NCBI GenBank assembly: GCA_012514175.1
Contig: JAAZAU010000009.1
Location: 32,283 to 96,282, forward strand
Direction of reading: 5' to 3'
DNA: 64,000 nt
From: Parcubacteria group bacterium
GTDB taxonomy: Bacteria; Patescibacteriota; Minisyncoccia; Phycocordibacterales; WO2-35-19
The translations under genes were made by a program, and so were the position numbers. Shown here one piece after another: positions 10,828-22,160 of the stretch (the first letter of the stretch is position 1; each line of letters starts with the position of its first letter). Under the pieces are notes generated by a model. That model saw only the letters and a program-made list of their open reading frames with translations. It had not been told where the DNA came from and did no database searches.

Positions 10828-13581
10828 ATGAACAAAAAACATTTTGAACAATCAATGAATCCGAAAGAGCATACCCAATCCGAATTGAGAGATGCTGGAA
10901 TTTCTCATCCAAGTGAATGGAAGAAAGCGTTAGATTTATACACCCCATTGGAGGAAGAGGAGGAAATATTAACTCCGGATCGTCGTAGTTTTAAAAAATT
11001 GGCATCCTATCTTGAGGAAGACAGAAAGATTTCTGATAGAGAAAAAATTAAAAAATTTAGCGAAACATCGGATTCAATTGAACGATTGGAAATTTTACGA
11101 TCAATGTCTCTTCAAGATGCTATTGAGTGTTTAAAAAATTATTCAAACAATGACGATCAATACCGATATTTAGCCGGCCGTTTAGATTTTTATCAAAAAT
11201 TTATTCAAGGAAAAGCTACTTATAAACAAACTGAATATGATCTTAAAAAAGGCGAATATGTTCAAGTTGAAAAAGAATATCCTATTGACTCCTCTGATGC
11301 TACTCCCGAAACAGTTCGCTTAGGTATTTTGAGAGACATAGCATTCGCGTCAATGATTGGCACGCCGGAACTTGGAATATTTAAAGTTGCCGAAAAAAGA
11401 TTAAAAGCAAACGATAAAAGCAGAACCCACATGCCAGAATTAAAAGGATACCATTCTGGTATTCATGAGAACAGTATTGGGAATGCTTATCCTTTTTTGC
11501 GGGCACTATATGAAGAAGCGCATAAAAGTGTGGAAGGGCGCTTGCGTGGTCAACAAACTGATCCACAAGTTTTGGAACACAGAGCAGTTATTCTCGGTGC
11601 GAACTGGCTCGAGGAAGCGATGAATTATAATGATCCGAGCAGAAGTCCAAAATCGCCATATGTTGGTTCTTTGAAGGAATCAATTGCCTGGGCACGATTG
11701 GGTTCTCAAGTTAAAAAACAGTTGCTCGGAATGAGACAAAAAATTCAAGGAATTGACCTGCACAACATAGAAAGGTTTATCGGAAGATCTGGAGATAATA
11801 AATACGAGTCCGAAAGAAGAAAGCTTTTTGGTCAGATTAAATTTTTGAAAGAAGGATACGACCAGGATAAAAAACAGGAATTTACCACCAAGGAAAACGA
11901 GTTTGCTGTTCAGAAACAGCACAAGTGGTTTGAGCGTGAAAGCGAACGCCTAAATCATAAATTTGAAAAATCAAAAGCGGAGATTGAAACAGCTAATCTG
12001 CCTGACGATGAAAAAGAATTGCAGTTGCAACCGGTTGTTGAAAAACATCAATGTGCAATGACAGAACTTGAAACAGATTATCATACTCAAGTGGAGCGAC
12101 TACAAAATAGAACTCCCGAACAGTTGTTGGTTGATTTAGAACAAAGACAAACATCGGTTAATGAACGATATGAAAAAAGAAAAAGCCTGGCTCAAAAAGC
12201 TCTGGATTTACATTTCAAAATTAACCATACTGGTGGTGATTATAACAGCAAGCCGCTCACTGGGATCGTTGATTGGATTAACTATGCCCCATTCGGCACT
12301 GTTAAGCGGGCTCACAAAATGATGCGTTTAGGAATGAGTGATGAGGTTATCACAGAATACTCACTTGCAGATACTATTGCCGGCAAACGAGGGGCCACAA
12401 GAGACGACCTGAAAACCATCCACTTTTTGATTGAAAAAGCAAAGGGTCAAGATTATAAAGTGAGACGAAAACTTGAGGCGATGATGAAAGTTGGAAGCAT
12501 TTTGTCTATGGCCGGCTTTAAGGCGTCTTTTGATGAGGTTGCCGAATTGGCTGGAAAAAATTTCTATGGAATGGCGGAAGCCTTGAAAATGTATGATTTG
12601 GGGCAAGTAAAACAATTTATAGATCAAGGAATCAGTTTGTGGTCAATTATCGAAACAAGAAAAATCACTCAAAAACACGGATATGAGCTATCTCCAGTTG
12701 AAGTTGCGGAAATTGCTTTGCACAACATTGATGGTCTTGATGATGCACTTAGAACATTTAATTTAGGTGAAGTAAGGACATTATTAAGTCAAGATGTTGA
12801 TTTGCTAGTCGCAATTGCTGTTTTGAATAATACTCGTCAGTTTGGGTACGAGCTTGATATTACCCAAATAACAAATGTTGCCAAAAATGTTCACTGTATA
12901 AATGATTTTACTTCCGCACTTCGTGAGTTGCCATTAGCTGAAGTTGAAAAATTGCTTACAGTCGGAGTTCTTTATAGTGGATTCAGTAAGGTAAAAGTGG
13001 CGTTAAAAAAACATGGATATGCTTCTGATTTCTCGTCTACACTGTCATCTTCGCAAAAACTTATTAAAAACAGTGAATACAACAACCTTGATCGCATATT
13101 AGATTTTTATAGTCTTGCCGAAGTTGATCAGATTATCGCTAAAGGGGTAACATTGCAGAATGTGTTGAATGTGAGAGAGGCACTAAAGGGAAAAGGTGTT
13201 CAACTTCATCTGCAAGAAATTTTAGAGTTTGTAAAGTATGCCGGCGATTTCTATGACTCCAGTTATTATGTTGGTCGGGCTATTGATGTGTTTGGAATTG
13301 AAGGTGCTCGTAAGATTGTTGCAAAGGGTTGTCGGCTCGGTGAGGCTATTGAGGTATATAATTATATCAATGACGGTAATGGAACATTGGAGCAGTTACG
13401 AGAATTCTTAAAAAAGGGTGGGTTGGATGTGGTAATTGCTATTGGCAAATCTAACAATATGGAAGCTTTTAAAAAAAGGTTTACTTTAGAAGATGTCAAA
13501 AAAACAATAGAGGCAGGGTTTACAATAGAAGAAATCACAAGATTTCCATTCCTTATTTCTCCATTAGTCACGAAGAAATAG
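10828..13581 (+). CDS. Large (917 aa) cytoplasmic alpha-helical repeat protein; first gene of MoxR/VWA operon
   Basis: No signal peptide. The C-terminal half is made of ~50-aa degenerate repeats (..F.L.EV..LL..GV..). The last 27 aa (IKTIEAGFTIEEITRFPFLISPLVTKK) are identical to the end of the next ORF. Confidence 0.8.
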   Translation: MNKKHFEQSMNPKEHTQSELRDAGISHPSEWKKALDLYTPLEEEEEILTPDRRSFKKLASYLEEDRKISDREKIKKFSETSDSIERLEILRSMSLQDAIECLKNYSNNDDQYRYLAGRLDFYQKFIQGKATYKQTEYDLKKGEYVQVEKEYPIDSSDATPETVRLGILRDIAFASMIGTPELGIFKVAEKRLKANDKSRTHMPELKGYHSGIHENSIGNAYPFLRALYEEAHKSVEGRLRGQQTDPQVLEHRAVILGANWLEEAMNYNDPSRSPKSPYVGSLKESIAWARLGSQVKKQLLGMRQKIQGIDLHNIERFIGRSGDNKYESERRKLFGQIKFLKEGYDQDKKQEFTTKENEFAVQKQHKWFERESERLNHKFEKSKAEIETANLPDDEKELQLQPVVEKHQCAMTELETDYHTQVERLQNRTPEQLLVDLEQRQTSVNERYEKRKSLAQKALDLHFKINHTGGDYNSKPLTGIVDWINYAPFGTVKRAHKMMRLGMSDEVITEYSLADTIAGKRGATRDDLKTIHFLIEKAKGQDYKVRRKLEAMMKVGSILSMAGFKASFDEVAELAGKNFYGMAEALKMYDLGQVKQFIDQGISLWSIIETRKITQKHGYELSPVEVAEIALHNIDGLDDALRTFNLGEVRTLLSQDVDLLVAIAVLNNTRQFGYELDITQITNVAKNVHCINDFTSALRELPLAEVEKLLTVGVLYSGFSKVKVALKKHGYASDFSSTLSSSQKLIKNSEYNNLDRILDFYSLAEVDQIIAKGVTLQNVLNVREALKGKGVQLHLQEILEFVKYAGDFYDSSYYVGRAIDVFGIEGARKIVAKGCRLGEAIEVYNYINDGNGTLEQLREFLKKGGLDVVIAIGKSNNMEAFKKRFTLEDVKKTIEAGFTIEEITRFPFLISPLVTKK
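13501..13581 (+). repeat. 81-bp direct repeat, copy 1 (encodes the shared C-terminal tail)
   Basis: Sequence aaaacaatagaggcagggtttacaatagaagaaatcacaagatttccattccttatttctccattagtcacgaagaaatag is identical to 15059-15139. Confidence 0.85.
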
Positions 13582-13645
13582 TATAATTAAAAAATAAATT
13601 ATGACTGATGATGACGGATAATCTAATAGTGTTAATGTAAATAAC

Positions 13646-22092: not shown

Positions 22093-22127
22093 AAATTGGC
22101 AATAAAAACTAATTCTAATAAAGGTTT

Positions 22128-22160
22128 TTGTTTATCCAGATAAACACTTGTTTTTTTTTT
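22128..22160 (+). terminator. Putative rho-independent terminator closing the operon
   Basis: GTTTATC..GATAAAC hairpin followed by a T10 run. Confidence 0.4.

Follow-up and report, generated by a model that had tools for sequence, protein, structure and literature searches.

A conserved five-gene module, ORF1-ORF3-ORF4-ORF5-ORF6 (ORF, open reading frame), underlies an array of six co-directional genes at positions 10828 to 22160 of a 64,000-nucleotide (nt) stretch of Parcubacteria DNA, hereafter called the window. Comparison of the window with 39 fetched loci (40 loci in total) indicates that the module is real, rare and so far undescribed, occurring mostly in ultra-small Patescibacteria; no description of the cassette was found in the literature. 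Its core consists of a predicted MoxR-class AAA+ ATPase (ORF4) and a VWA protein with a metal ion-dependent adhesion site (MIDAS; ORF5), and a short tag recurs at the C-terminus of proteins encoded beside this pair. The evidence tips us, slightly beyond even confidence, towards the interpretation that ORF4 and ORF5, with ORF3 and ORF6 as accessory subunits, form a self-contained MoxR-VWA remodelling machine acting on tag-addressed clients, which in the window would be ORF1 and ORF2.

MoxR-VWA pairs are widespread. To our knowledge, the client is known for only a handful of them, and the choice of client is mostly unclear. Comparison across loci suggests that the client mark is a short, invariant and transferable C-terminal tag, which gives a testable recognition rule composed of the tag, its acidic position 7 and the MIDAS site. 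If true, tag addressing would be a principle of client choice that has not been described for MoxR ATPases. The genes of the array in the window are the following:

ORF1, 10828 to 13581, + strand: 917 amino acids (aa); putative principal tagged client
ORF2, 13646 to 15139, + strand: 497 aa; second tagged protein, apparently lineage-specific
ORF3, 15175 to 15531, + strand: 118 aa; small, beta-rich
ORF4, 15536 to 17500, + strand: 654 aa; predicted MoxR-class AAA+ ATPase
ORF5, 17520 to 21611, + strand: 1363 aa, isoelectric point 4.75; VWA/MIDAS protein
ORF6, 21604 to 22092, + strand: 162 aa; LRV_2 repeats; likely true start ATG 21619
Probable terminator, 22130 to 22160, + strand: 7-bp AT-rich hairpin (GTTTATC-CAG-GATAAAC), then T10 at 22151-22160

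An earlier note on this DNA had described the six ORFs as a tight operon, with gaps of 64, 35, 4 and 19 bp and a final 8-bp overlap, closed by a hairpin and a T10 run. This layout is present as described, with the exception that ORF6 probably starts at ATG 21619, since its homologs start MSKNFE, which would turn the overlap with ORF5 into a 7-bp gap. The hairpin and T10 are likewise in place, though a consensus terminator scan made no call at the site. As a unit of conservation the operon has to be reduced to five genes: ORF1, ORF3, ORF4, ORF5 and ORF6 are conserved together, whereas ORF2 appears confined to its lineage.

A C-terminal tag linked to the cassette

ORF1 and ORF2 have their last 26 residues in common, and at the DNA level 98 nt (15046-15143 versus 13488-13585) are 94% identical. 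This region contains a tag of about 22 residues overall, with the motif AGF[ST]x[ED][ED][IL]xx[FY]P[FY]LxSxL:

ORF1 tag, 13513 to 13566, + strand: aa 896-913, AGFTIEEITRFPFLISPL, then VTKK and the stop codon
ORF2 tag, 15071 to 15124, + strand: aa 476-493, identical in protein sequence to the ORF1 tag

Taken alone, the near-identity of the two 3' ends could reflect a recent local duplication, in which case the common C-terminus would be a by-product without functional link to the ATPase-VWA pair and the genes mere neighbours. We give this explanation almost no credence. Proteins unrelated to one another bear the tag, in lineages far apart and in divergent DNA and protein contexts, the gene order is always ORF1-ORF3-ORF4-ORF5-ORF6 over about 90 loci (counting those found with the tag as seed), and paralogs without the tail are located elsewhere. 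Indeed, in every complete cassette-linked ORF1 homolog of the loci the tag ends up 3-8 residues from the C-terminus. The strict pattern is fitted by 100 of 120 ORF1 database homologs, with about six more near-variants, and position 7 is acidic without exception in 86 unique tails (E in 80, D in 6). The proteins otherwise unrelated to ORF1 that carry the tag include one of 526 aa encoded between ORF5 and ORF6 in a Magasanikbacterium, one of 536 aa, repeat proteins of 635 and 640 aa, one of 172 aa beside minimal cassettes, and one of 210 aa on a conjugative element. With ORF1 homologs and these unrelated proteins taken together, at least one tagged protein is therefore found per canonical or minimal cassette with enough sequence.

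The reverse approach, a metagenome scan seeded with the tag alone, yielded 49 loci, and ORF3-ORF4 directly follow in 44 of the 45 that have enough downstream DNA. In the sole exception (L057), a group II intron-type reverse transcriptase (YADD) at 787-2127 stands right after the ORF1 homolog, in the usual place of ORF3, and the contig then ends. None of the four tail-less ORF1 N-domain paralogs that were checked has an AAA_5 gene within 8-10 kb. The comparison of loci thus shows an apparently exclusive link between tag and cassette. The repeat proteins had been put forward in the earlier note as substrates, adaptors or effectors of the ATPase-VWA pair, a proposal that is strengthened by the portability of the tag.

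The description of ORF1 and ORF2 as helical repeat proteins was also confirmed. In ORF1, a conserved N-terminal domain (aa ~56-345) leads into a coiled coil (aa 346-467), after which come a conserved segment (aa ~480-500), about six helical repeats of ~55 aa each (aa ~505-895) and the tag. Its predicted structure (50 sequences; mean predicted local distance difference test score, pLDDT, 85.3) is all-alpha except for one beta hairpin, with a coiled coil of ~100 residues and four-helix repeats, the last and truncated one of which would be the tag itself. No solved fold matched this model, and a PDB profile search with ORF1 gave nothing significant. ORF2 consists of 11 tandem helical units of 34-40 aa plus the tag; between 13770 and 14984 the DNA repeats with periods of 102 and 117 nt, and the units appear to have arisen by recent expansion at the DNA level. 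Apart from its last ~30 residues, ORF2 has no counterpart in the 39 loci seeded with the ATPase, and ORF2-like tag-bearing fragments were found in two tail-seeded metagenome loci (L087 and L090). It is best regarded as a local, lineage-specific addition outside the conserved core.

The ORF1 N-terminal domain was additionally observed in stand-alone proteins of ~1,400 aa, fused to two GNAT domains (L042 10001-14245; P0222, P0223, P0227). These paralogs are untagged and lie away from any cassette, the L042 copy among transposase genes. Other tail-less ORF1 paralogs are encoded near a Shedu SduA_C gene and phage-like genes.

ATPase, VWA protein and small subunits

The Walker A and B motifs and the AAA_5 domain that had been read from ORF4 were fully borne out. 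Pfam AAA_5 matches aa 352-482 (nt 16589-16981) with 55.9 bits against a cut-off of 22, and 15 homologs all retain, unchanged, Walker A (GPRGTGKNK, aa 355-363), Walker B (D422/E423), N465 and R482, the last two residues aligning in NorQ with the Asn of sensor 1 and the Arg finger. The best PDB relatives are NorQ (9qh4, E = 8.6e-9) and CbbQ, with E values from 8.6e-9 to 2.2e-5 and over the core only, and no NCBIfam model is reached (GvpN, 12.3 bits versus a cut-off of 266.8). Judged by these similarities, ORF4 is a MoxR-class AAA+ ATPase nearest to NorQ/CbbQ, and it presumably works as a hexamer. The core is preceded by a family-specific region of ~340 aa (aa 1-345, nt 15536-16570) that is absent from other MoxR proteins and whose predicted model matched no solved fold. 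Database homologs (113) are full-length and 47-84% identical. The ORF5 gene starts 19 bp 3' of ORF4, and the two are adjacent in 38 of the 40 loci, in agreement with the MoxR-VWA pairing proposed from the window.

ORF5 is divided into globular and low-complexity parts:

N-domain, aa 1-262, + strand: conserved globular; invariant NAxLRHExGNxN
Low-complexity stretch 1, aa 263-455, + strand: E/Q/K-rich
Middle domain, aa ~456-645, + strand: conserved globular; missing in the shortest homologs
Low-complexity stretch 2, aa 646-1084, + strand: Q/E/G/S-rich
Pre-VWA segment and VWA, aa 1085-1363, + strand: MIDAS DxSxS at aa 1195-1199

The earlier description of the ~900 residues preceding the VWA domain as low-complexity sequence thus holds for aa 263-455 and 646-1084, but not for the globular regions at aa 1-262 and ~456-645. 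The VWA domain itself stands as described: Pfam VWA matches aa 1192-1325 with 28.2 bits against a cut-off of 23.8 (30.4 bits with the isolated C-terminus), it is the final domain in 14 of 14 aligned homologs, and 14 sequences share the metal-site residues D1195-x-S/T1197-x-S1199 (nt 21102-21116), the Thr of GTPD (~aa 1264) and D1296. The N-domain family counts only 24 representatives among 1.84 billion cluster representatives and is therefore rare and without detectable link to other families; a homolog search with this domain retrieved 10 fragments only. PDB profile searches with whole ORF5, the N-domain and the VWA region gave nothing significant, and Pfam scans of the isolated sub-domains at E ≤ 10 returned the generic VWA match only.

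ORF3 and the LRV protein ORF6 are best interpreted as two dedicated accessory subunits of the ATPase-VWA module. ORF3 occurs in 34 of 40 loci, with the invariant motif GRWLFGVPGYxGHIR and no match in Pfam, NCBIfam, PHROG or PDB, and is encoded directly upstream of the ATPase gene whenever an ORF1-type client is present. ORF6 always follows ORF5 (28 of 40 loci). The LRV repeats noticed in it correspond to a Pfam LRV_2 match at aa 92-143 (nt 21877-22032; 33 bits versus a cut-off of 27, E = 5.8e-8) with conserved NPN motifs, behind an acidic, helical N-terminal part, and a PDB profile search with ORF6 gave nothing significant. Four modules of the cassette are without recognisable relative and would represent new structural families: two judged by fold search (the ORF1 body and the N-region of ORF4) and two by sequence and profile search (ORF3 and the N-domain of ORF5).

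The reader subunit of the tag, the direction of the reaction and the biological role of the machine are what we infer from here on. The minimal loci are devoid of ORF1 and ORF3, and the shortest ORF5 proteins of the middle domain; therefore, the reader would be ORF4, the ORF5 N-domain or VWA, or ORF6. In a first step, ORF5 would act as the adaptor that captures the client, with the MIDAS metal plausibly coordinating the always-acidic position 7 of the tag, by analogy with NorQ-NorD, CbbQ-CbbO and Rea1. Alternatively, the LRV solenoid or the ORF4 N-region may grip the hydrophobic FPFLxSxL end of the tag. In the last step, ATP hydrolysis by ORF4 would cause the client to be remodelled, assembled or released.

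Distribution, genomic settings and possible role

A scan with the ORF4 family of one genome per species (185,579 species) detected 34 loci, patchily distributed within Patescibacteria. Hosts belong to at least nine Patescibacteria lineages (Zambryski-, Pacei-, Parcu-, Magasanik-, Peri-, Morani-, Falkow- and Gracilibacteria, and many Saccharibacteria) and, beyond them, include metagenome-assembled genomes (MAGs) of Peptococcaceae and Synergistaceae as well as some small contigs that binning had placed in Proteobacteria and other groups, although for small MAG contigs the assigned taxon may reflect erroneous binning. Patescibacteria have genomes of about 1 Mb and a biology that is largely dark, and in some of them the cassette is among the largest conserved uncharacterised gene blocks. 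In the 40 loci, ORF4 occurs in 40, ORF5 in 38, ORF3 in 34, ORF1 in 30 and ORF6 in 28, so that conservation of ORF1, ORF3 and ORF6 together with the ORF4-ORF5 pair was confirmed across lineages, with no change in gene order; besides these five, no gene family is common across lineages in these loci. Of the window proteins, ORF4 is the most similar to its homologs (50-84% identity) and ORF1 the least (24-60%), indicating that the client bodies evolve fastest and the ATPase slowest. Three architectures were distinguished:

Architecture 1: canonical five-gene form
Architecture 2: minimal ORF4-ORF5-ORF6 form, in Peptococcaceae and Synergistaceae
Architecture 3: variant form in loci L038 and L041, with an LRV protein bearing a 600-700-aa helical extension and an ORF5 without the middle domain

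Homology of the LRV-fused extension in L038 and L041 to the ORF2 repeats, which would have argued that the LRV protein binds the client, was considered and rejected, as a hidden Markov model built from the ORF2 unit gave these proteins scores no higher than those of shuffled controls.

Several cassettes lie in mobile-element or defence-related settings. One is found within a type IV secretion system conjugative element (TrbC, TrbL, VirB4, coupling protein, relaxase and serine recombinase), one between a tyrosine integrase and phage tail genes, one near Fic/RhuM, AbiEii and SNF2 helicase genes, and one near Ntox44, DUF5412 and HTH_17 genes on a 1.93-Mb Gracilibacteria chromosome. No ORF4 relative was present in the 2.9 million viral contigs of IMG/VR, and PLSDB plasmids contain only remote MoxR/CobS cores, 28-32% identical and limited to the core. 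In oral and gut Saccharibacteria (L004), paralogous gene pairs (a protein of ~900 aa, then one of 120-150 aa) were observed on both sides of the cassette, at 1-1077 and 16234-19519; these proteins are untagged and unmatched in Pfam.

Rarity and patchiness, high cross-phylum identity, interchangeable and fast-evolving clients, and mobile-element and defence-island settings are among the traits by which conflict systems have been recognised (Kaur, Burroughs, Iyer and Aravind, eLife 2020, PMC7159879), and their occurrence here hints at such a system. The role that we consider most likely, though we put it at clearly less than even, is an accessory, horizontally spread function of the cassette in conflict or in association with mobile elements, in which the fast-evolving, interchangeable tagged proteins would be effectors or sensors. 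More tentative still, and on balance doubtful, is the broader proposal of a new mobile, ATP-driven 'tag-and-remodel' class, in which a portable 22-residue tag commits unrelated proteins to a MoxR-VWA-LRV machine that may govern conflict among Patescibacteria, mobile elements and hosts.

Several points weigh against these interpretations. The variant cassettes of L038 and L041 have no detectable tagged protein, and the tail-seeded scan was made with close tags of the Parcubacteria type, so that mainly ORF1 orthologs were recovered. The tag itself could instead drive self-assembly of the clients or bind a factor encoded elsewhere. As to conflict, no toxin, nuclease or enzyme domain is recognisable in any client, and PADLOC (PADLOC-DB 2.0) gave no real match, only a lone ZorA hit (E = 4.9e-5) in low-complexity/coiled-coil sequence of ORF5. 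As to mobility, the cassette in the window is surrounded by housekeeping genes, the window contains no integrase, no att-like direct repeats flank the cassette, and its GC content at third codon positions (GC3, 0.25-0.32) is that of the adjacent genes, without anomaly. From the lack of integrase and flanking repeats and from the ordinary GC3, it follows that the cassette has long been resident in the window and bears no sign of recent transfer.

A role in structural assembly is kept alive by the housekeeping setting in the window and by the lack of a known effector domain. ORF1 would then be a structural scaffold (cytoskeletal, or for attachment or division) that is assembled or recycled by the MoxR-VWA pair, as with RavA-ViaA, GvpN and Rea1, and the cassette a housekeeping assembly chaperone without role in conflict. 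The all-alpha ORF1 with its ~100-residue coiled coil and regular helical repeats, the resemblance of ORF5 to the acidic-linker and MIDAS end of Rea1, the very strong conservation of the ATPase, and the housekeeping neighbours, which were found at L002 as well as in the window, are in line with this explanation. We nevertheless regard it as rather unlikely: a family that is patchy even within Patescibacteria, present in so small a number of the species genomes scanned and very rare in protein space, with unrelated and interchangeable clients and with several loci in mobile-element or defence-island settings, is not readily reconciled with a housekeeping function.

The window is chromosomal DNA of a Parcubacteria-type Patescibacterium, and its ORF4 is 100% identical to a protein listed at NCBI under 'Parcubacteria group bacterium'. 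The genes around the cassette encode TsaE, PolA, Fpg, a Mur ligase, RuvA, tRNAs, a NUDIX protein, RuvX, PilMNO and an H+-PPase, and two tRNA genes (22183-22334) lie directly 3' of the terminator. In the first of them (22183-22259, + strand) the anticodon loop is 8 nt long (TTTCATTA); ARAGORN gives the anticodon as the four bases 'tcat' without assigning an amino acid, while the Rfam tRNA score is 55.5 bits, and the gene could encode an odd tRNA-Met/Ile2 or a non-standard decoder. The second is one of two tRNA-Val(TAC) genes (22262-22334, + strand, and 32690-32763, - strand), which lie in opposite orientation about 10 kb apart, each adjoining another tRNA gene. Next comes a 512-aa protein (22336-23874, + strand) whose C-terminal 130 aa form a NUDIX domain and whose first 370 aa have no match; the cassette of the Magasanikbacteria locus L002 likewise has a NUDIX gene downstream. 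At the left end, a 189-aa ORF (787-1356, + strand) with a signal-peptide-like N-terminus and no Pfam or Rfam match has 54.6% GC (GC3 68%), versus 31-42% GC (GC3 23-31%) for the other window genes, and is possibly a recent foreign acquisition. The 23S rRNA gene (58719-62519, + strand) measures 3801 nt versus the 2925-nt model, amounting to ~0.9 kb of insertions or introns, and is followed by the 5S gene at 62609-62714. Insertions and introns in 23S rRNA are common in Patescibacteria.

Comparison with known MoxR-VWA systems

Gene content and domain architecture place the cassette outside NorQD, CbbQO and CobST(N), and outside all four of the vWA-MoxR ternary classes published so far: the clients or third components of these systems are missing from it, and the VWA domain, which is C-terminal, has no effectors fused to it. 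In NorQ-NorD and CbbQ-CbbO, the MIDAS of the adaptor engages an acidic residue of the client, which is then remodelled by the ATPase. The cassette resembles these pairs in the AAA_5 core of ORF4, nearest to theirs among solved structures, in the partner gene immediately downstream, and in the C-terminal VWA/MIDAS domain after a non-VWA N-terminal part; by analogy, the same mode of action may be expected. It differs from them in the 340-aa N-region added to ORF4, in the additional ORF3 and LRV subunits, in the length of ORF5 (two to three times greater), with its two additional conserved modules and ~630 aa of acidic low complexity, in the marking of its clients by a C-terminal tag, and in that no NCBIfam model is reached. 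Nitric oxide reductase and Rubisco genes are absent from the window, and indeed no nor, cbb, cob or bch genes occur within its 64 kb, so that the earlier statement that canonical clients are not found nearby holds for the gene list of the window. Likewise, the comparison with characterised pairs left NorQ and CbbQ as relatives over the core only.

With CobS-CobT-CobN and BchI-BchD-BchH, a group that includes phage 'CobS/CobT-like' pairs, the cassette shares the combination of a small AAA+ subunit, a VWA subunit with an acidic linker and a large third protein, and the CobS-like (2.6e-12) and CobT-like (5.6e-10) families of PHROG are its best phage-family matches. A chelatase-like or cofactor-insertion system of the CobN-S-T, BchH-I-D or NorQ-NorD type, with ORF1 as the large metal- or cofactor-receiving subunit, could be deduced from these similarities and from NorQ being the best PDB relative of ORF4. 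This is highly improbable in our view, given that ORF1 is unrelated to CobN/BchH, that Pfam CobT and CobT_C are unmatched in ORF5 (CobT_C, E = 0.14, 12.2 bits, below the cut-off of 21), that the CobT-like PHROG match covers mostly low-complexity sequence, that the clients are structurally unrelated to one another, and that the window is devoid of the corresponding genes.

In the vWA-MoxR ternary systems, the third component is VMAP, iSTAND, a double FtsH AAA+ or a beta-propeller fused to the vWA, variable C-terminal effector domains come after the vWA, and VMAP-C is alpha+beta (PMC7159879). The cassette is similar in its MoxR and vWA core with an obligatory further component, in its variable partners within a fixed operon frame, in its patchy, mobile distribution, and in the proposed logic, according to which the vWA captures a peptide and the MoxR ATPase releases it remodelled. 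The possibility that it is one of these conflict systems, with ORF1-ORF3 as a VMAP-like third component or effector, is nonetheless very slight. No VMAP, iSTAND, FtsH-type or beta-propeller component was detected by Pfam at E ≤ 1 in the six proteins, nor did ORF1-ORF3 contain the VMAP-C or other effector domain that the earlier note had envisaged. Moreover, ORF1 is all-alpha, unlike VMAP-C, the vWA is C-terminal and without effector domains, the reverse of the described architecture, and the ORF4 N-terminal region is without known relative. Coupling would be by a terminal tag rather than by paired effector-associated domains, and the phyla differ, the published systems being centred on multicellular actinobacteria, cyanobacteria and similar organisms, not on Patescibacteria. 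The link to ternary systems drawn in the earlier note can thus be retained as an analogy, but not as an assignment, the defining third components and vWA architecture being missing.

The tag-addressed remodelling machine that we favour can also be compared with a eukaryotic protein. Rea1 (midasin) is a single, essential eukaryotic polypeptide with six AAA modules, whose C-terminal MIDAS grips an acidic residue of the client. An ATPase of the AAA_5 type and a C-terminal MIDAS behind a long, acidic linker of low complexity are features that the cassette may, by analogy, be considered to share with Rea1, whereas its motor and its MIDAS reside in two different proteins, and it is a rare, accessory system.

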